Part shown: positions 1,694-9,680 of the stretch, in pieces
Layout of the letters: each line of letters opens with the position of its first letter
How positions within the stretch are numbered: the first letter of the stretch is position 1
Origin: an uncultured Acidobacteriaceae bacterium
GTDB lineage: Bacteria > Acidobacteriota > Terriglobia > Terriglobales > Acidobacteriaceae
DNA: 64,000 bases
Direction of reading: 5' to 3'
NCBI GenBank assembly: GCA_963804135.1
Contig: CAWDPH010000008.1
Location: 87,741 to 151,740 of the forward strand
Translations under genes and position numbers: made by a program
The notes under the pieces: model-generated
Told to the model about the DNA's origin: nothing
The model's database searches: none
What the model saw: only the letters and a program-made list of their open reading frames with translations

Positions 1694-2737
1694 ATGGAGA
1701 TCTCTGAAACACCCCGCGGGCATCACTGGTCGCTGACGCTGCTGGGCATCGGCTTGATCGTTCTGTTCGCCTACTACGGCGAATCGGTGCTGGCGGTGCT
1801 GTTCTTTGCCATTCTGCTGAGTTTTATGCTCTCTCCGGTGGTGCAGGCGCTGGAGTATCTGCATGTTCCGCGAGCTCTCGGGGCGCTGATCGGCGTGGCC
1901 GCGCTGCTGGCGGCGGTTTATGGCATCACGGCGGCGTCTTACAATCAAGCCGCTGTTTTCGCGGACAACGTTCCGAAGTATTCGCAGAAAATCCGCTCCA
2001 TCCTGCAGCCCTTCCGGCAGCAGGCGGAGAACCTTGAAAAAACGGGCGAGGCGGTTGGGGAGCCCGAGCCCTCGAATGTGGTGCCGGTGCGGCAGGTGAA
2101 GAGCTGGACCGACGTGCTCACCCACGGAGCCGGCACTTTGACCGACATCCTGCTGTCAGCGTCGTTCATCCCGTTCCTGGCTTATTTTCTGCTGACCTGG
2201 CAGAGCCACGCGCGGTCGGCCACGGTAATGCTGTTTCCTTTGCGTCACCGGAACACGGTTTTCGTGACCTTGGGGCTGATCGGGAAGATGTTGCAGAGTT
2301 TCATTGTGGGGAACCTGCTGATCGGGCTGCTGATGTCGGGCGTGAGCGTGGCGATTTTCGGGTTGCTGCACGTCCCCTTCTTCTACTTCGTCGGCTTTCT
2401 CAGCGGCTTTCTGAGCCTGGTTCCGTACCTCGGAATCGTGCTGGCGATGGTGCCGCCGATCCTGGTCGGCCTGGGGCAACTGGATGCGGGAGACTTGGCG
2501 ATAGTGGTGCTTTGCGTGATCGGGCTGCATCTTTTCGCGCTGAATGTTCTCTATCCCAAGCTGCTGGGAAACCGCCTGAGACTCAATCCGCTGGCAGTCA
2601 CGATCGCGTTGCTGTTCTGGGGAGCGGTCTGGGGCGCCATCGGATTGGTGCTCGCCATTCCGATCACGGGCGCGATCAAGATTGTGTTCGACCACGTCGA
2701 GTCGATGAAGCCGTATGCGGATTGGCTGGGCGAGTAG
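1694..2737 (+). CDS. AI-2E family transporter (PerM/UPF0118 permease)
   Basis: 347 aa polytopic membrane protein. Overall layout and the C-terminal LAIPITGAIKIV segment are typical of the family. Confidence 0.85.
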   Translation: MEISETPRGHHWSLTLLGIGLIVLFAYYGESVLAVLFFAILLSFMLSPVVQALEYLHVPRALGALIGVAALLAAVYGITAASYNQAAVFADNVPKYSQKIRSILQPFRQQAENLEKTGEAVGEPEPSNVVPVRQVKSWTDVLTHGAGTLTDILLSASFIPFLAYFLLTWQSHARSATVMLFPLRHRNTVFVTLGLIGKMLQSFIVGNLLIGLLMSGVSVAIFGLLHVPFFYFVGFLSGFLSLVPYLGIVLAMVPPILVGLGQLDAGDLAIVVLCVIGLHLFALNVLYPKLLGNRLRLNPLAVTIALLFWGAVWGAIGLVLAIPITGAIKIVFDHVESMKPYADWLGE

Positions 2738-2744
2738 AGATCTT

Positions 2745-2775
2745 TTCACCGCGGAGACGCAGGGAGCGCCGAGAG
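2745..2775. repeat. Solitary family-D repeat arm (TTCACCGCGGAGACGCAGGGAGCGCCGAGAG)
   Basis: Same word structure as the arms at 35124, 40536, 42049 and 49936. I found no convincing partner arm. Confidence 0.6.
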
Positions 2776-3001
2776 CATCTCTTTGGAATCTCGAAACCTG
2801 TATCCCTTTTTCACGAGGAAACAACGACGGAGCGACTGACTCTAAATCGGTCTTTTGGGTTTCGCCGGGGTTTTCAACGGACTGTGGAAACTGCCTGTTG
2901 ATAACGCTGGTATTCGGTCCTTGACGATGGTGTGGATGGTAGATAAATATGTACACGTATCAAAAATCCCACAACTTTCGAGTCGAAGGAGTCCGCTCCA
3001 C

Positions 3002-3217
3002 ATGCCCAGCGTCTTCGTGGTACCGGTGTACGTCGAGGTGTCCAGTGGGTTCGAGCGTGCGATTGATACGTTAGAATTTTATCTGCGCCGAGCGGGGTAT
3101 GTGTTCCATACTGGCAAGCCCTTAGCGGAAGACTTGGAAGACATAAAGGCCAGGCTCAGCGACGGCACTCAAGAGGTTGATAGTGAGCACCCCGGAGGAA
3201 GAGCGTTTTCTGCTTGA
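3002..3217 (+). CDS. hypothetical 71-aa protein (first ORF of islet operon)
   Basis: ATG at 3002 preceded by AAGGAG (about 10 nt upstream). The longer track ORF from 2855 has no signal. No recognisable motif. Overlaps the next ORF by 35 nt. Confidence 0.35.
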   Translation: MPSVFVVPVYVEVSSGFERAIDTLEFYLRRAGYVFHTGKPLAEDLEDIKARLSDGTQEVDSEHPGGRAFSA

Positions 3218-3401
3218 ATGTTGGGCGCAGAATGTATGCTCACAATGTTCCAAGCAAATCCCAGAGGGCAAGCGTGTCGGCAGTGGCAAGAAGAGCGATG
3301 GCGGCTTTTGCTCCCTTGACTGCTATGGCGAATACCACAAGAAAAGGCTGGTAGAAAAACATAAGAATCTCAGGGACGAAGAGCAGCGTCGTAATAATTG
3401 A
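3183..3401 (+). CDS. small zinc-ribbon protein, CxxC...FCSxxC (FCS/TRASH-like)
   Basis: GTG at 3183 with AAGAGG 6 nt upstream (TTG at 3177 also possible). CSQC...GGFCSLDC cysteine pairs, basic C-terminal tail. Confidence 0.5.
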   Translation: MSTPEEERFLLECWAQNVCSQCSKQIPEGKRVGSGKKSDGGFCSLDCYGEYHKKRLVEKHKNLRDEEQRRNN

Positions 3402-3422
3402 ACGCGAAGGGCAGGACTCGAA

Positions 3423-4637
3423 TTGGACAACGTAGAACGATCATTGTTTCCAGAGATATACGACAAACGGGTTGGGAACGGGATTTTGCCATGGCAACAG
3501 ATCAGGCGGATGGTGGAGACCGGCCGGATAAGCGCGAGCCCAGAAGTGTCGGACTCTCAGCTCCAACCGGCGAGCCTGGATCTGCGCCTAGGCCGCGAGG
3601 CTTATCGCGTTGAAGCGAGTTTCCTCCGTGGCCGCTCGGCCACTCTTCTTACAAAGGTGCATGAGTTGCTCCACTCCACAATTGACCTCACCCAGCCAAC
3701 ACCGCCTTTGCTGGAACCCCGCGTCGTGTACATAATCCCGCTGCTCGAACGACTCAAGCTCCCAAACGATATTCAGGGCGTCGCCAACCCGAGGAGCACA
3801 ACTGGACGTCTTGACATATTTACGCGATTAATCACCGAGTTCGGTGATGAGTTTGACCACGTTGAGAAGGGGTACTCTGGCCAACTCTATGTAGAAGTTT
3901 CTTCCAGAACGTTTCCGATCCGTCTGAGGGCTGGGATGAAGCTCAACCAACTACGCTTTGTGCGTGGCACTTCAGCCAGGCTGGGTACCGGGAATCTGAG
4001 AGAGCTGGCGAAAGAGCAGCGCCTTGTCTACGATGCCGAAGGCAGCCCCGCGAAGAATCACGTCGGCGACGGCGTGGAGATCACGGTAGATCTAGAGGGC
4101 GACAACCGCTCAAGTATCGTCGCCTATAAAGCCAAAGGATCTGATCGGGAGATAGAACTGGACAAAATCGATTACTACGACCCAGCGGATTTCTGGGAGG
4201 CAATCCCAAGGCCCGGCAATGGCCGCATTGTTCTCGATGCTGGCGGTTTCTATCTATTAGCCTCGAAGAAGAGGGTGCGCATCCCTCTCGATCATGCGGC
4301 GGAAATGGTCGCGCATGACCCTAGCATGGGAGAATTTCGCGTTCACTACGCCGGATTCTTCGACCCCGGCTTTGGATATGGGGCCAATGGGGAAATTCCG
4401 GGAACGAAGGCGGTGCTGGAAGTCAGGGCATACGAGGTACCGATGCTGCTAGAGGACGAGGATCTAGTCGGCAGACTGCACTACTACCCGATGGCAGCTA
4501 TCCCGGATAGAGTATATGGCCTTTCAATAGGTTCTTCGTATCAGCAGCAATGGCTTGCTCTCAGCAAGCAATTCAAGCGCCCCGAGGCGCAGCGAGATCG
4601 CATGTCGGGCCCTGCTCCCAGCCTAGCCACAGCTTGA
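3423..4637 (+). CDS. 2'-deoxycytidine 5'-triphosphate deaminase, long two-domain form (Pfam DCD / PF06559-like)
   Basis: TTG start with GGCAGGA upstream. First half has [28 protein letters not shown] and GQLYVEVSSRTFPIRLRAGMKLNQLRF. Second half has EFRVHYAGFFDPGFGYG and AVLEVRAYEVP. These match my recollection of the long DCD family. Confidence 0.85.
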   Translation: MDNVERSLFPEIYDKRVGNGILPWQQIRRMVETGRISASPEVSDSQLQPASLDLRLGREAYRVEASFLRGRSATLLTKVHELLHSTIDLTQPTPPLLEPRVVYIIPLLERLKLPNDIQGVANPRSTTGRLDIFTRLITEFGDEFDHVEKGYSGQLYVEVSSRTFPIRLRAGMKLNQLRFVRGTSARLGTGNLRELAKEQRLVYDAEGSPAKNHVGDGVEITVDLEGDNRSSIVAYKAKGSDREIELDKIDYYDPADFWEAIPRPGNGRIVLDAGGFYLLASKKRVRIPLDHAAEMVAHDPSMGEFRVHYAGFFDPGFGYGANGEIPGTKAVLEVRAYEVPMLLEDEDLVGRLHYYPMAAIPDRVYGLSIGSSYQQQWLALSKQFKRPEAQRDRMSGPAPSLATA

Positions 4638-4775
4638 CCCTGTCGGCCTTGCGGCGCTATCCCAAGTGGTTTGCGGCTGTCCGTGTGCACTTCCGCTGCC
4701 GGTTGAAGCAGATGCTCCTCCCACGATCGAGAGCAACTGTCGCTCTTCAGACTCAAGCATCAGTTTGTCAGACCC

Positions 4776-5411
4776 TCAGCGGGCAAGGAGGCGCGTCAGC
4801 AGTGCGCCTATTATGGAGCCTAGCAGGGCCGACAAAAAAGCCAGGAGGCCGGGCCTAGCGTTTATTCGGTCCAATAGCCGCCAGAACCGCCCGACGCCGG
4901 CGGGGCCCTCAATTTTCTTGCCGGGGCCTGTGTAGGGGATAACCCCCAGGCCAACTTTATGCACGACAAGGGCGCAGAACTTTTGCCCCTGCTTCAGGGT
5001 CTTCTCCTTCATGCCTAAATTAAACAACGTGACCACGAGATGATCGTGATATCCAGGGTCAATCTTCGAGAGCGTGTTAGAAACGCCGTCTTGTAAAAGC
5101 CCCACCTTGGGCACAATGTACCCGAGCATCGACTGAGGCAGCCAGACCTGCTCCTCGGTTTCGATCAAGATTGCGCCACCAGGCAGCAGAGTAATCTCTC
5201 CCCCTTCGCGCAGAGTCCACCGTTCCGAATCCCGGTGGTCTTTGTACGCCCGACCTATTCGCAGGTCATAGGTCGCGTTAGGCTGCTCTCCTTGTAGTTG
5301 GCTCTTGTCCAGGTTGAGGATCAGCATGGCGCTGCCCTTAGGGTCGAACTGATCTTCTCTGGCTACAACGGTAGGATTGGTTCCGTCCGTCACGAAGGGA
5401 ATCACCGACAT
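4776..5411 (-). CDS. Dcd/dUTPase-fold protein with C-terminal transmembrane anchor
   Basis: ATYDLRIG, LLPGGAILIETEEQVWLP and KIDPGYHDHLVVTLFNLG match Dcd/dUTPase barrel motifs. The protein ends in the hydrophobic helix LLAFLSALLGSIIGALLTRLL. ATG at 5411 has GAGG 7 nt upstream; ATG at 5417 is the alternative. Confidence 0.7.
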   Translation of the reverse strand: MSVIPFVTDGTNPTVVAREDQFDPKGSAMLILNLDKSQLQGEQPNATYDLRIGRAYKDHRDSERWTLREGGEITLLPGGAILIETEEQVWLPQSMLGYIVPKVGLLQDGVSNTLSKIDPGYHDHLVVTLFNLGMKEKTLKQGQKFCALVVHKVGLGVIPYTGPGKKIEGPAGVGRFWRLLDRINARPGLLAFLSALLGSIIGALLTRLLAR

Positions 5412-5460
5412 TGGCATACCTCATGCGCTAACTGCTAAGAACAGAGAAGTTTCGCGTCTC

Positions 5461-5488
5461 ATTATATTCGGGGACCGCCAATAAACAA
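5461..5488 (-). promoter_or_regulatory. candidate sigma70-type promoter of the 4776-5411 gene (TTGTTT-16 nt-TATAAT on minus strand)
   Basis: Reverse complement of 5461-5466 is TATAAT and of 5483-5488 is TTGTTT, about 45 nt upstream of the start codon. Confidence 0.4.
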
Positions 5489-5521
5489 GGGGAGTTTTAC
5501 ACGGTTCCCTCCGGGCGTTCC

Positions 5522-6589
5522 GTGCGCAGAGCCCTTAAGCGTTACTCTCGGAAGCTTCCCCTCCGCCCGGGTCTGTTGCATTCTTTGGAGAGCCTCTACA
5601 CTGGAATCTTGCGCACCCTGATCAAACTGTTCTTGGTTGTCGTTCTCGCCGTCGTCGGCTGGGCGGCTTGGCAGGTCTATGCGCCGGTCACGCCTCCAGC
5701 CAATACTTCTCTGCTGCTGCATTCCGGGTATTCGACGCGGCGCATCGCGGCCGAGTTGAAGAAGGCGGGCGTGATTCGCAGCGAACTGGCGTTCCGGCTC
5801 TGGCACGCGTGGCATCGCAAGCCATCGTTGAAGGCGGGCGAGTATCTTTTCGAGCGCGCGGCTACTCTTCCACAAGTTCACGAGCGGATCGGGCGGGGCG
5901 ATATCTACTTCCACACCGTCACCATTCCCGAGGGCTATACGGTGTTCGATATTGCCAAGGCGATGGAGGACGCGGGGCTTGGATCGGCGGCGGATTTTGT
6001 GCAGGTTGCCGAAACTCAGACCCAGTTGATTTCGGATTTGGCGCCGGACGCCAAGTCGCTGGAGGGGTATCTCTTCCCCAACACCTACGAGTTCACGCGG
6101 ACCGAGACTCTGGAAGAAATGGCGGCGACGATGGTCCATCAGTTCCGGCAGGTGGCGCAGCAGATTGGGCTGAACTCGGACGTCCCGCGGATCGTGACCA
6201 TGGCTTCAATCGTTGAAAAAGAGACTGCGGCTCCGGAGGAACGGCCCCGCGTGGCCAGCGTGTACTACAACCGGTTGGCGCAAAGGATGGCGCTCGACGC
6301 CGATCCGAGCGTGATCTACGCCGAGCAACTGACGGGCACGTATTCGGGAAGCCTGCATCACGCCGACTTGTCCGTGAAATCGCCCTACAACACCTATCGT
6401 TTCCCAGGGCTGCCACCCGGACCTATCGCGAATCCAGGAAGAGGCGCTCTCGAAGCGGCGCTGCATCCCGACAGCACAAAGTTTCTTTATTTTGTTAGCG
6501 ATGGCAACGGGCGCCACCGCTTCGCCTGCAGCCTGGAAGAGCACAATCGGAACGTGGTCGCCTATCGGCGCGCACTTGGGCTGCGGTAA
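5522..6589 (+). CDS. mltG: endolytic murein transglycosylase MltG (YceG-like)
   Basis: 355 aa with an N-terminal TM helix. GEY, TIPEG, LEGYLFPNTYEF, ASIVEKE, YNTYRFPGLPPGPIANPG motifs. Confidence 0.9.
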   Translation: MRRALKRYSRKLPLRPGLLHSLESLYTGILRTLIKLFLVVVLAVVGWAAWQVYAPVTPPANTSLLLHSGYSTRRIAAELKKAGVIRSELAFRLWHAWHRKPSLKAGEYLFERAATLPQVHERIGRGDIYFHTVTIPEGYTVFDIAKAMEDAGLGSAADFVQVAETQTQLISDLAPDAKSLEGYLFPNTYEFTRTETLEEMAATMVHQFRQVAQQIGLNSDVPRIVTMASIVEKETAAPEERPRVASVYYNRLAQRMALDADPSVIYAEQLTGTYSGSLHHADLSVKSPYNTYRFPGLPPGPIANPGRGALEAALHPDSTKFLYFVSDGNGRHRFACSLEEHNRNVVAYRRALGLR

Positions 6590-6699
6590 ACAGCTAGTCA
6601 GCGGTACGACTGAAGCGGGCCACGGAACGAGTCGGATGTTCCGACGCCCAGCCCCTAACACGCTGCGGAAAAACCCACCGAGCGCGCAAGAAGCTCACC

Positions 6700-6863
6700 T
6701 CCGGCGCTGAAGCGCGACACATTTTTAAGGACTTAACGGCACGAGTAAACTCGTGCCCTTCCCAAAACCTGCTTGAAATGGAGTTTTTCCGCAGCCTGCT
6801 TAAAGGGGCGTCTGATTTTGAAGACCTTAGCGGGATCGCCAAAGCGATACCCTGATACGAAGC
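6700..6863. repeat. Family-A repeat cluster
   Basis: ACGGCACGAGTAAACTCGTGCCCTTCCC (6735-6763) and CGGGATCGCCAAAGCGATACCCTGATACGAAGC (6831-6863) parallel the two modules at 784-951. Confidence 0.65.
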
Positions 6864-6954
6864 CAGAGTGTTTCCTGCTGAGCGCTGAACCGTTTGCTGC
6901 CTTATACTAATCAGATACCCAAGTAGCGAAAGGTTCTCAGGTACTGGCATAGGA

Positions 6955-7890
6955 ATGTATCGTCCTCATCTGCGCTTGCTTTGTCTATTATTTCTGACGG
7001 CGGCTACTTTCCCGCTGAGCGGGTGTCTGTTCCGGACGCGTACTCTGGACCGTCAGTTCTCCAACCAGCCGCTGAAGACGGCGACCCAGCAGGATCTGAT
7101 CGAATACGTCAACACGCAGGCTGCCAAGATTCAGTCGATGCAGGCGACTGTGGATATTGACGCTTCGGTTGGGGACACGAAGAACGGCCGCATCACCGAT
7201 TACAAAGAGATTCGGGGTTACGTGCTGGCGCGCAAGCCCGCCATGCTCCGCATGAAGGGCCTGCTGCCGCTGGTGCGAAACACGGCTTTCGATATGGTGA
7301 GCGACGGGCAGGAATTCAAGCTCTGGATTCCTCCGAAGAACAAGTTCTTCGTGGGCCAGGACGATGGCGACAACTACCAGCCCGACAAGCGGCTGGAGAA
7401 CATGCGGCCCCAGTACATTTACGAAGCGCTGCTGATACCGGAAATCGGGCGGGACGAGATTGCGGTAATGGAAAACGGCTATGAAACCGTGTTGGACGCG
7501 AAGAAGCATCGGGTCGAGCAGCCGAATTACGCTCTGGCCGTCATCCGCAAGGGGCCCCAGGGTTGGTATTTGTGGCGCAAGATCGAGTTCAGCCGAACTG
7601 ACCTGCTGCCGCGCCGGCAAAGGATCTACGACCAGCAGGGAAACGTCGCGACCGACGCTCACTACCACGACTACAAAGACTACGCGGGGATTGCATTCCC
7701 AAGTACGATTGAGATCGAGCGGCCGCGGGAGGATTACGACATCATCCTCAGCATGGTCAAGCTGGAAATCAATCGCGCGCTGACCGACGATCAGTTCGCG
7801 CTGGAGCAGCCGCCGGGAGCCGAGGTGGTGCACCTCGATTCCTCCAACACCAGGGCGGCGGCGAAAGGGTCGGAAAGCCACCGGAGGTAG
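6955..7890 (+). CDS. lipoprotein, putative LolA-like / outer-membrane lipoprotein-sorting fold
   Basis: Signal peptide with lipobox FPLSGC. Function inferred only from size and adjacency to an FtsX-type permease. Confidence 0.45.
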   Translation: MYRPHLRLLCLLFLTAATFPLSGCLFRTRTLDRQFSNQPLKTATQQDLIEYVNTQAAKIQSMQATVDIDASVGDTKNGRITDYKEIRGYVLARKPAMLRMKGLLPLVRNTAFDMVSDGQEFKLWIPPKNKFFVGQDDGDNYQPDKRLENMRPQYIYEALLIPEIGRDEIAVMENGYETVLDAKKHRVEQPNYALAVIRKGPQGWYLWRKIEFSRTDLLPRRQRIYDQQGNVATDAHYHDYKDYAGIAFPSTIEIERPREDYDIILSMVKLEINRALTDDQFALEQPPGAEVVHLDSSNTRAAAKGSESHRR

Positions 7891-7905
7891 TTCTCCAGAA
7901 AAAGC

Positions 7906-9012
7906 ATGATGAATCGCATGATCGTCGGGAATTTGGTGCATCGGCCGGTACGCTCGCTGATCAGCATTGTGGCGGTGGCGCTGGAAGTCGCGATGATTCT
8001 GCTGATTGTCGGGTTCTCGCTGGGGATGCTGCAAGACTCACGCACGCGGACTGCGGGCATCGGGGCGGATGTGATCGTGCTGCCCCCGGGATCGTCTTTC
8101 ATCGCCGGGCTGACCGGCAGCCCGATGCCGATCAAGGTGGCCGGCGTTCTGGCCAAACTGCCGCACGTGGAACATGTCGCTCCGGTGATCACGCAGGTCT
8201 CGACCTCCGGCGCGCTGGAGATCATCGCCGGAATCGATCTGCCGAGTTACGAGAGCATGTCGGGCGGCTTTCACTATCTGAAGGGCGGTCCGTTCCAGGG
8301 GCCGAATGATGTGCTGGTCGACGATTTGTTTGCCCAGTCCAAGCACTCCAAAGTCGGCGACACGATCGAGATCCTCAATAACCCGTTCCACATCTGCGGC
8401 ATTGTCGAACGCGGCAAGGGTGGACGAAAATTCCTTCCCCTGAGCACCTTGCAGGATCTGACCGGCGGCAAGGATAAGGCCTCGGTCATGTACCTCAAGC
8501 TCGACGATCCCGCGAACGCGGATGCGGTGGTGGACGAGATCAAGCAGGTGCCGGGGATGGAACGCTACGTCGCCAGTTCGATGGCCACCTATCTTTCGAT
8601 GATGACCCCGACTCACATTCCCGGCCTTTCGACCTTTATCGATGTGGTGATCGGGATTGCGGTGGTCATCGGGGTCCTGGTGATTTTTCAGGCGATGTAT
8701 ACGGCGGTGATGGAGCGGACGCGCGAAATCGGCATTCTGAAATCGATGGGCGCGTCGAAGCCCTATATCGTAAACGTAGTGCTGCGGGAAACGGCGCTGC
8801 TGGCGGTGGGAGGCATCCTGCTGGGCATCGTCGCGAGCGTGGTGGCCCGGAGCCTGATTCATAATCGGCTGCCCCTCACGCCCATGGTACTGGCCGGGGC
8901 ATGGGTTGCGCGGGCTGCCTTGATTGCTCTGGCCAGCGCGGTCGCCGGTGCGCTGTATCCGGCGTTCAAGGCGGCGCAGAAGGATCCCATCGACGCGCTG
9001 GCTTACGAGTAG
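7906..9012 (+). CDS. ABC transporter permease, MacB/LolC/FtsX family
   Basis: 368 aa. N-terminal TM, large periplasmic domain, C-terminal FtsX-type TM bundle (REIGILKSMGASK motif). Confidence 0.85.
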   Translation: MMNRMIVGNLVHRPVRSLISIVAVALEVAMILLIVGFSLGMLQDSRTRTAGIGADVIVLPPGSSFIAGLTGSPMPIKVAGVLAKLPHVEHVAPVITQVSTSGALEIIAGIDLPSYESMSGGFHYLKGGPFQGPNDVLVDDLFAQSKHSKVGDTIEILNNPFHICGIVERGKGGRKFLPLSTLQDLTGGKDKASVMYLKLDDPANADAVVDEIKQVPGMERYVASSMATYLSMMTPTHIPGLSTFIDVVIGIAVVIGVLVIFQAMYTAVMERTREIGILKSMGASKPYIVNVVLRETALLAVGGILLGIVASVVARSLIHNRLPLTPMVLAGAWVARAALIALASAVAGALYPAFKAAQKDPIDALAYE

Positions 9013-9131
9013 GGGGCGCCACTCTTCGTTTTCGCTTTCAATTCGCCCCATGGGTAGGGGCTCTTTCCTCTCTAATAATTTTGCTCGCAAATCGGCAGAG
9101 AATGCACGATACTGCCGGTGAAACTGCGCCG

Positions 9132-9140
9132 TGCTATAAT
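9132..9140 (+). promoter_or_regulatory. extended -10 promoter element TGCTATAAT upstream of the H1-like gene
   Basis: TGnTATAAT at 9132-9140, about 105 nt upstream of the ATG at 9246. No good -35, as expected for extended -10 promoters. Confidence 0.4.
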
Positions 9141-9245
9141 CGCGCGCCGGTACGCAGAAACAGTGCAGTTTCGCAGCCGGTTGTCCTAATTCCCTGGCCC
9201 TGCTCGCGAATGCGCGCGGGTGACCGCAAATACGCAGGAGGAGAT

Positions 9246-9680
9246 ATGCGCTTCGATGATCCGACTCTGTATGGTCGGGACGATGAGACGGATGAGTTCA
9301 GCGACAGCGGCGCCTATGGCGAATCGCTGGAAGAAGATCTAGACGAAGAAGAAGAAGAGGAAGAAGAACCAGCCCTGGTGGAGGAAGACGACGAACTTCC
9401 CGCGCCTTTGGTACGGGAGCCCGTGGCAACACCCGCACCCGTAACTCCGTCGGGCGGCGGCGGCCAGGGTGGGCCGCCTAAGAAGAAGGCGCCTGCCAAG
9501 AAAGCCCCCGTCAAGAAGGCTCCTGCCAAGAAAAAGGCGGCAAAGAAGCCGGCCAAGAAAGCGGCCAAAAAGCCGGCCGCCAAGAAAAAGGCCAAACCCG
9601 CGAAGAAGAAAAAAGCGGCGAAGAAGCCGGCCCGGAAAGCGGCAAAGAAGAAAGGCACCCGCAAGAAAGGCCGCCGTTAA
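9246..9680 (+). CDS. histone H1-like Lys/Ala/Pro-rich DNA-binding protein with acidic N-terminal half
   Basis: ATG at 9246 with AGGAGGAG upstream; the 5' part of the track ORF from 8901 overlaps the permease. Poly-Glu block followed by KKAPAKKAPVKKAPAKKKAAKKPAKKAAKK repeats. Confidence 0.7.
   Translation: MRFDDPTLYGRDDETDEFSDSGAYGESLEEDLDEEEEEEEEPALVEEDDELPAPLVREPVATPAPVTPSGGGGQGGPPKKKAPAKKAPVKKAPAKKKAAKKPAKKAAKKPAAKKKAKPAKKKKAAKKPARKAAKKKGTRKKGRR

Follow-up and report, generated by a model that had tools for sequence, protein, structure and literature searches.

A conserved, predicted tail-anchored Dcd/dUTPase-like protein encoded beside dCTP deaminase genes

A 64,000-nucleotide stretch of DNA from an uncultured Acidobacteriaceae bacterium (assembly GCA_963804135.1, contig CAWDPH010000008.1, positions 87,741 to 151,740 of the forward strand; hereafter the window) carries a gene at 4776-5417 on the minus strand, the product of which is a member of the dUTPase/Dcd superfamily with the all-beta trimeric dUTPase fold. 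Dcd and Dut denote here deoxycytidine triphosphate (dCTP) deaminase and deoxyuridine triphosphate (dUTP) pyrophosphatase, or dUTPase. The protein ends in a predicted transmembrane helix and belongs to a rare family, termed family (a) where related families have to be told apart, whose linkage to dcd is conserved across phyla; because of this conservation, a functional connection with the neighbouring dcd, and in a wider sense with dcd and dut, is strongly supported. The protein cannot be a dCTP deaminase, since the Ser/Arg/Glu triad required for deamination is replaced by Val/Gln/Thr. The function that we tentatively favour, while giving it somewhat less than an even chance, is that of a dUTP pyrophosphatase that is tethered to the membrane, has a re-wired phosphate site and acts after Dcd. 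The gene and the parts of its product are as follows.

4776-5417, minus strand: gene of the predicted tail-anchored Dcd/dUTPase-like protein, 213 amino acids from the ATG at 5417, with the stop codon TGA at 4776-4778
4956-5327, minus strand: beta-rich dUTPase/Dcd-fold core, residues 31-154 (AlphaFold2 and Foldseek)
5259-5279, minus strand: motif I, N47-A-T-Y-D51-L-R53, with Asp51 aligned with the motif I Asp
5103-5108, minus strand: motif II, K104-V105, the conserved Ser being replaced by Val
5049-5087, minus strand: motif III, G111-V-S-N114-T-L-S-K118-I-D120-P-G-Y123, aligned with motif III of Dut and Dcd
5028-5030, minus strand: Thr130, aligned with the position of the Dcd catalytic Glu138
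4887-4955, minus strand: putative C-terminal lid, residues 155-177, with conserved Tyr162, Lys167, Ile169 and Gly171
4782-4853, minus strand: predicted C-terminal transmembrane helix, residues 189-212, with a hydrophobic core (residues 190-208) at 4794-4850 and a short helix (residues 178-186) before it

Fold, active-site positions and membrane segment

The true start of the protein is probably Met3 (ATG at 5411), as indicated by gene callers and by the family consensus MSVIP..., which gives a length of 211 amino acids; residue numbers refer to the longer form. Two Pfam models match the protein, PF22769 (DCD; E 7.9e-12, 46 bits against a cutoff of 27) and PF00692 (dUTPase; E 1.3e-5, 25.4 bits against a cutoff of 22). 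All matches to the curated NCBIfam Dcd and Dut models fall far under their cutoffs, with 44.1 bits against 92.8 for TIGR02274 (dCTP deaminase equivalog), 39 against 102.6 for the Dut model TIGR00576 and 31 against 103 for the Dut model NF001862. The AlphaFold2 model, obtained with 54 homologues, has a predicted local distance difference test score (pLDDT) of 95.4 and a predicted template modelling score (pTM) of 0.87. In the model the beta-rich core is followed by a less confident loop, the short helix and the long C-terminal helix. The top Foldseek matches are 8y1w, 9ln0/9ln3, 4xjc, 2qlp and 1xs4, with a probability of 1.00 to Dcd and Dut structures. A chance or decaying open reading frame (ORF) was ruled out by the invariant motifs in more than 88 homologues and the high-confidence fold. 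That the substituted active-site positions are fixed and not drifting also speaks against a decaying gene.

For residue mapping, E. coli Dcd and Dut were aligned to a profile of 88 full-length homologues, and a multiple alignment agreed with the result. The equivalent positions are these.

K104: R110 of E. coli Dcd and R71 of E. coli Dut
V105: S111 of E. coli Dcd and S72 of E. coli Dut
Q109: R115 of E. coli Dcd
N114: N84 of E. coli Dut
K118: R126 of E. coli Dcd
D120: D128 of E. coli Dcd and D90 of E. coli Dut
Y123: Y93 of E. coli Dut
T130: E138 of E. coli Dcd
Residue 146, variable: R116 of E. coli Dut
A149, Ser or Ala across the family: Q119 of E. coli Dut

Much of a dUTPase active site is retained at these positions. 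Asp51 of motif I is Asp in 84 of the 88 homologues and Glu in 4; the motif I Asp coordinates Mg (PMC12524310). Asp120 and Tyr123 of motif III are each found in 88 of 88, Tyr123 being the counterpart of the Tyr (Tyr93 of E. coli Dut) that stacks on the sugar. The catalytic Asp of the trimeric dUTPases is Asp90 in E. coli Dut, equivalent to Asp83 in the M. tuberculosis enzyme (PMC5519681). Asp90 is the first D of LID90SDY93 and aligns with Asp120. An earlier reading of the same DNA (the original prediction) had placed a Gly at this catalytic position. The assignment was mistaken, since the Gly stands under the second, non-catalytic Asp, and the equivalent of Asp90 is invariant.

Other parts of both known active sites are replaced. 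The original prediction had also proposed that the catalytic Glu of Dcd is missing and that the GRSS loop reads PKVG, and the profile alignment bears out both: Thr130 occupies the Glu138 position, with the whole Ser/Arg/Glu triad gone, and K104-V105 forms motif II. The substitutions are characteristic of the family. Thr is found at the Glu position in 87 of the 88 full-length homologues and in 184 of 194 in a wider set, and [KR]V is found at motif II in 188 of these 194; V105 and C148 are each present in 88 of 88. In motif IV, the position of the Arg (residue 146) is not conserved and the Gln is replaced by Ala or Ser149. The Ser of motif II and the Gln of motif IV are the residues that, in trimeric dUTPases, form hydrogen bonds to the alpha-phosphate and activate it towards attack (PMC3905902). 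The glycine-rich motif V (RG..GFGS type) is absent, the C-terminus consisting of the putative lid, in which Tyr162 is aligned with Tyr171 of E. coli Dcd, and then the membrane helix. The invariant or near-invariant residues gather at known nucleotide-binding motif positions (N47, Y50, D51, L52, R53, G55, Y58, H61, R62, P103, [KR]104, V105, L108, G111, S113, N114, T115, S117, K118, D120, G122, Y123, T130, F132, N133, L134, G135, F147, C148, Y162 and K167). One member of the family (L031) carries Asn and Thr at the positions of Asp51 and Arg53.

The segment of residues 190-208, GLLAFLSALLGSIIGALLT, has Arg on both flanks and is the most hydrophobic 19-mer of the protein (Kyte-Doolittle 2.12). 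Its approximate insertion free energy (dG) is -0.6 kcal/mol, compared with +8 to +13 for the best 19-mers of the soluble Dcd and Dut of E. coli and cyanobacteria. AlphaFold2 models residues 189-212 as a single helix with a pLDDT above 90, and a comparable C-terminal segment is present in 155 of 161 full-length relatives. The C-terminal transmembrane helix suggested by the original prediction is thereby upheld. No hydrophobic segment other than the C-terminal one is found in the protein, and there is no N-terminal signal. Because such a signal is absent, the sequence would predict insertion in a tail-anchored, N-in orientation.

Distribution, neighbouring genes and cassette exchange

Family (a) is real but rare. 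A search of 90%-identity clusters yielded 109 proteins, and an exhaustive profile search of 1.84 billion representatives yielded 117 clusters at 50% identity with E <=1e-30 and 818 with E <=1e-10. The database names of its members are mostly 'dCTP deaminase', besides 'dCTP deaminase domain-containing protein' and 'hypothetical'. No description of the family was found in the literature searched on membrane-anchored dUTPase or Dcd and on PDB 8y1w. The family is uncharacterised and is not a common housekeeping Dcd variant. The sub-cutoff NCBIfam matches and the roughly 117 clusters agree with the earlier view of a Dcd-like protein outside the characterised housekeeping families. A one-genome-per-species scan gave 42 loci, in Acidobacteriota (including Vicinamibacterales and Pyrinomonadaceae), many Cyanobacteria, Alphaproteobacteria, a Dehalococcoidia, two Bacillaceae and Archangium. 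The spread is patchy over at least five phyla. The family gene is dispensable in some lineages. Truncated copies were seen in some Nostoc/Cuspidothrix (L132 5619-5945, L137 5794-6294, L151 5666-5857), and an acidobacterial remnant (L048 10001-10336) adjoins a transposase-like ORF.

Two further genes of the window belong to the immediate neighbourhood.

3423-4637, plus strand: two-domain 2'-deoxycytidine 5'-triphosphate deaminase (long DCD), with PF06559 and PF22569 and 434.7 bits to NF005734 against a cutoff of 283
3177-3401, plus strand: ORF of 74 amino acids with a Cys4 zinc ribbon (CSQCSK...CSLDCY), directly upstream of the long DCD, with weak zf-FCS/DUF2116 matches

In the window the family gene is convergent with the long DCD and divergent from mltG. 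A scan for promoters and terminators over 3000-5700 gave no signal bearing on the gene pair above shuffled expectation. A homologue with 47% identity stands immediately before a long DCD, and a Nodosilinea homologue is flanked by a short Dcd. In the species scan, dcd lies within about 1 kb of the family gene at 36 of the 42 loci, and these 36 cover Acidobacteriota, Cyanobacteria, Chloroflexota, Bacillota and Myxococcota. The orientation of the two genes varies, and the gaps between them are often operon-like. The partner Dcds are of four types, namely long, cyanobacterial KST-type, E. coli-like and Bacillus-type, and all those inspected keep the catalytic Glu. Similarly, a Dcd neighbour is present in 61 of 80 metagenome contigs, and in 24 of 28 among the contigs with at least 1.3 kb on both sides.

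Positions otherwise held by canonical dut are occupied by the family gene in two settings. At three proteobacterial loci that have no dcd neighbour (L013, L014, L037), the family gene fills precisely the slot between coaBC and moeB. Canonical dut stands in that slot in 77 of the 80 closest CoaBC relatives, with the order coaBC>dut>moeB in 28, and none of the 80 has a family member. The second setting is the position convergent to dcd in Nostocaceae, where about 20 loci have the family gene and 4 have canonical dut. Over 80 cyanobacterial dcd loci, about 20 have the family gene convergent just after dcd, three of these copies being truncated; 12 have a gene of a sister family (b), about 47 have nothing, and four have canonical dut at that position followed by a gene of another sister family (c). 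In Archangium (L047), canonical dut, dcd and a family member lie side by side. The 80 closest relatives of a Nostocaceae Dut (L211-L290) include only about six Nostocales, with no family carriers listed, the rest being from other cyanobacterial orders and Clostridia at 62-70% identity. With so few Nostocales among the closest Dut relatives, canonical dut seems rare in this order, most of its members having neither dut nor the family gene, and the KST-type Dcd of Nostocales may therefore be bifunctional.

The 3' end of dcd looks like a hot spot of recombination or insertion. Extra 3' dcd fragments lie beyond the family gene at three loci (L041 9486-9707, L042 9506-9847, L045 6042-6305), three tandem dcd 3' fragments occur at L198 4630-4987, and some cyanobacteria carry tandem full-length dcd duplicates (L165 4370-4972, L214 5093-5689).

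The zinc-ribbon ORF is a third conserved member of the module in Terriglobales-type loci. It is kept at 48-63% identity upstream of the long DCD at L001-L004, L009, L024, L038 and L046 and in about 45 metagenome contigs, and was left uncalled as a gene in L001-L004. Programmed read-through from this ORF into the DCD was considered and rejected; a common reading frame is seen in the window, L001, L046 and L024, whereas in L038 and L009 the two are in different frames. The ORF is a separate small gene.

The family (a), zinc-ribbon and DCD genes travel together, both in inheritance and in exchange. This follows from the contigs L321, L326, L333 and L344, whose flanks are 84-95% identical to the window at 1694-9012 while the three-gene module between them is only 44-52% identical. 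Compared were the flanking FtsX-like and MltG genes, the permease gene at 1694-2737 and the ORF at 6955-7890. Relative to the window, these contigs have their zinc-ribbon and DCD genes inverted. It follows as well from the occurrence of the window-type module, with a 93% identical DCD, in another context between priA and holB/tmk; a divergent module type is found in the same second context. The comparison further included L295 and L364. In the ORF at 8901-9680 of the window (plus strand), a long repeat tail rich in Lys, Ala and Pro (KKAPAKKAPVKKAPAKKKAAKK...) comes after an acidic stretch and recalls histone H1-like or AlgP-type proteins; the ORF overlaps the end of the FtsX-like gene in a different frame.

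The sister families (b) and (c) both match Pfam PF22769. They share with family (a) the [KR]-V motif II, the lack of the Glu and of the motif IV Gln, a DP[GD][YW] motif III and C-terminal membrane helices; they differ in being 21-37% identical to it and in having apparently two C-terminal hydrophobic segments, as judged from the sequences. Family (b) proteins, of 234 amino acids, have the motif SRVSQVSRGLSNISTKVDPGW and Pro at the Glu position. Their genes lie on the same strand as cyanobacterial dcd, about 60-250 bp after it (L141, L143, L145, L147, L149, L152, L153, L156, L159, L164, L174), and one of them (L141) is on a plasmid of Nostoc sp. NIES-4103. Family (c) proteins, of 266-274 amino acids, read K-V-S in motif II, with Ala where Dcd has the Glu and Asn in place of the motif I Asp. 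Among 80 dut loci, at least 11 have such a gene immediately before canonical dut, in cyanobacteria, a Fusibacter and a Methanococcoides (L211, L212, L214, L215, L219, L228, L229, L231, L239, L280, L289; the gene ends just before dut at about 4001). More distant matches of the profile search have the same pattern as (b) and (c).

Possible functions of the protein

As a membrane-tethered dUTP pyrophosphatase, the protein would probably form a homotrimer, by analogy with other superfamily members, with the catalytic-type domain on the cytoplasmic side and each subunit held at the membrane by its C-terminal helix. The product of Dcd would be handled there, most likely by binding of Mg-dUTP and its hydrolysis to dUMP and pyrophosphate. 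The nucleoside pocket of Asn114, Thr115, Asp120 and Tyr123 would be retained, together with Asp120 as the water-activating residue and Asp51 of motif I. Lys/Arg104, Lys118, Tyr162, Lys167 and possibly the family-specific His61/Arg62 would replace the usual Ser and Gln. Such a function is in agreement with the finding that the nearest relatives in sequence and structure are active archaeal Dcd-like dUTPases. It also agrees with the invariance of D120 and Y123 and the conservation of Asn114, Asp51 and the basic residue of motif II. Further support comes from the precise occupation of dut positions in two independent settings, the coaBC slot and the Nostocaceae position convergent to dcd, and from the dcd linkage across phyla and four Dcd types. 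Even a weak dUTPase activity can be physiologically useful, as for the M. tuberculosis Dcd:dut, with a kcat of 0.033 per second compared with 1.22 for Dut (PMC5519681).

Several observations weigh against a dUTP pyrophosphatase. The motif II Ser is replaced by Val105 and the motif IV Gln by Ala or Ser149, and the position of the motif IV Arg is not conserved; to our knowledge, no characterised enzyme of the superfamily lacks the motif II Ser. Canonical dut is present beside dcd and the family member in Archangium. In many genomes canonical dut shares an operon with family (c), an arrangement that would be redundant if the clade consisted of dUTPases. Moreover, we know of no reason for anchoring a dUTPase to the membrane.

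A close alternative, which we regard as quite possible without thinking it probable, is a pseudo-enzyme, that is, an anchored trimer that binds dUTP, dCTP or dTTP with little or no turnover and that regulates, senses for or tethers Dcd, or Dut where it is present. A possible mechanism is trimer-on-trimer docking like that in the hexamers of Dcd-family enzymes, combined with a nucleotide-dependent ordering of the lid, which leads straight into the membrane helix. The residues of both known chemistries are replaced (V105/Q109/T130 for the Dcd triad, V105 and A/S149 for the Dut Ser and Gln), and still the nucleoside pocket is invariant and the membrane anchor is conserved in family (a) and both sister families. 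The canonical dut alongside in L047, the operon of dut with family (c), in which the motif I Asp is lost, and the Asn/Thr at Asp51/Arg53 in L031 are likewise in line with loss of activity. So is the swapping of the family (a), zinc-ribbon and DCD genes as a cassette with co-varying identities, although the co-replacement of three genes is explicable by adjacency alone. The dut slot after coaBC is filled exactly, with no coaBC-dut-X intermediate in 80 relatives, and functional replacement fits this better than a pseudo-enzyme does. A single docking surface is also hard to picture for four very different partner Dcd types, one of them two-domain, and the closest relatives are active enzymes. The original prediction had suggested a pseudo-enzyme partner of the adjacent DCD. 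A functional tie between the two genes is strongly supported by their conserved linkage, and the argument from a missing catalytic Asp falls away; the suspicion persists through Val105 and Ala/Ser149.

In a broader form of this alternative, families (a), (b) and (c) together would make up a new clade of membrane-anchored pseudo-dUTPases. They would bind pyrimidine deoxynucleotides with inefficient hydrolysis at best, and serve as nucleotide-sensing regulators or membrane tethers for the soluble Dcd and Dut encoded alongside. We consider this, too, quite possible, again short of probable.

It is unlikely that the fold serves a different substrate or chemistry, for instance as a dCTP or dTTP pyrophosphatase, a dUDP/dCDP hydrolase or an enzyme of a modified pyrimidine nucleotide, with specificity set by the invariant Val/Gln/Thr that would line the 4-position pocket. 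The substituted residues are themselves invariant (V105 and C148 throughout, T130 in all homologues except one), which points to a defined new pocket and not to decay, Asp120 and Asp51 are kept, and the contacts on the beta-/gamma-phosphate side are altered. Nevertheless, nothing positive speaks for any particular substrate, and it is specifically dcd and dut that the gene contexts indicate.

Membership of a mobile module for conflict or phage defence, acting on the dCTP/dUTP pools with the anchored paralogue as sensor or effector, is very improbable. The patchy spread of the family, the truncated copies in some Nostoc, the cassette replacement between 84-95% identical flanks and the recurrence of one module type in different contexts would suit such a module, as would three loci of distant members without a dcd neighbour. 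These carry a GmrSD_N/NsnA-like protein with a C5 DNA methylase and a Vsr-like ORF (L044 6909-9290), NA37 together with a RelA_SpoT protein (L358 6703-8788; PADLOC candidate PDC-S33) and an SDH-type ClpP-like protease (L325 4566-5552). However, neither the protein nor its DCD nor the zinc-ribbon ORF matches a PADLOC model, nucleotide-depleting dCTP deaminases being among the systems covered, and tblastn against 50,697 phage and 72,556 plasmid records returned no family member, only remote Dcd/Dut matches whose identity did not exceed 29%. The family gene is surrounded by housekeeping genes here and at most other loci (mltG, coaBC, moeB, EF-G, tmk/holB, psb genes), and the cyanobacterial partner is the universal housekeeping dcd. 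Another family member without a dcd neighbour adjoins, at L361 1826-2863, an ORF without a Pfam or PADLOC match.

Thymidylate synthesis and the exclusion of uracil from DNA both hinge on the control of dUTP. A recognisable dut gene is missing from many prokaryotes (PMC5122711). An active protein would represent a new class of bacterial dUTPase, bound to the membrane and working without the Ser and Gln thought to be needed by all characterised trimeric dUTPases, and annotation gaps would be closed. An inactive one would be the first regulatory paralogue of Dcd/Dut enzymes with a membrane anchor, and a clean case of a pseudo-enzyme that co-evolves and is exchanged with its catalytic partner. Should the three families form a pseudo-dUTPase clade, a membrane-linked control layer on the flux from dCTP to dUMP would be inherited with its partner as an exchangeable cassette.

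Comparison with known enzymes of the superfamily

The best matches of the protein are the archaeal Dcd-like dUTPases, the thermostable P45 of P. furiosus (9ln0/9ln3) and the T. pacificus enzyme (8y1w, with dUMP), with a sequence E of 6e-9 (about 1e-8) and a Foldseek E of 2e-10. They share with it the Dcd-type DPG[WY] motif III with its Asp and the absence of the Glu, which is Met in the archaeal enzymes, and like family (a) they are often annotated as 'dCTP deaminase'. Such archaeal 'dCTP deaminases' were found to be efficient dUTPases without deaminase activity (PMC5122711). Since these monofunctional dUTPases have no Glu, its loss is normal in this lineage; the loss of Ser and Gln is not. 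The archaeal enzymes are soluble, of about 155 amino acids, without a membrane helix, and they keep RSS and R..Q, with 24-25% identity to the protein. The protein, without RSS and the motif IV Gln and with an added membrane helix, does not belong with them.

E. coli Dcd (1xs1/1xs4) and the long two-domain DCD (PF06559) have the fold, DLR.G, T.E....P and IDPG[WY] in common with the protein, and motif IV of E. coli Dcd also has no Gln. The difference lies in Ser111/Arg115/Glu138 of E. coli Dcd, which are Val/Gln/Thr in the protein, and in the membrane anchor of the latter. The bifunctional DCD-DUT enzymes (M. tuberculosis 2qlp/2qxx, M. jannaschii 1ogh/1pkh, B. halodurans 4xjc) are structural neighbours, and their example shows that a motif III of the Dcd-type DPG form is compatible with dUTP hydrolysis. 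As far as is known, these enzymes retain both the Glu and RSS, and unlike the protein they have no membrane helix described. Canonical trimeric Dut (E. coli, M. tuberculosis) shares with the protein the motif I Asp, the Asn...Asp-x-x-Tyr pattern of motif III and, at the Arg position of motif II, a basic residue. The protein lacks the Ser of motif II, the Arg/Gln of motif IV and motif V of canonical Dut, and would be anchored in the membrane.

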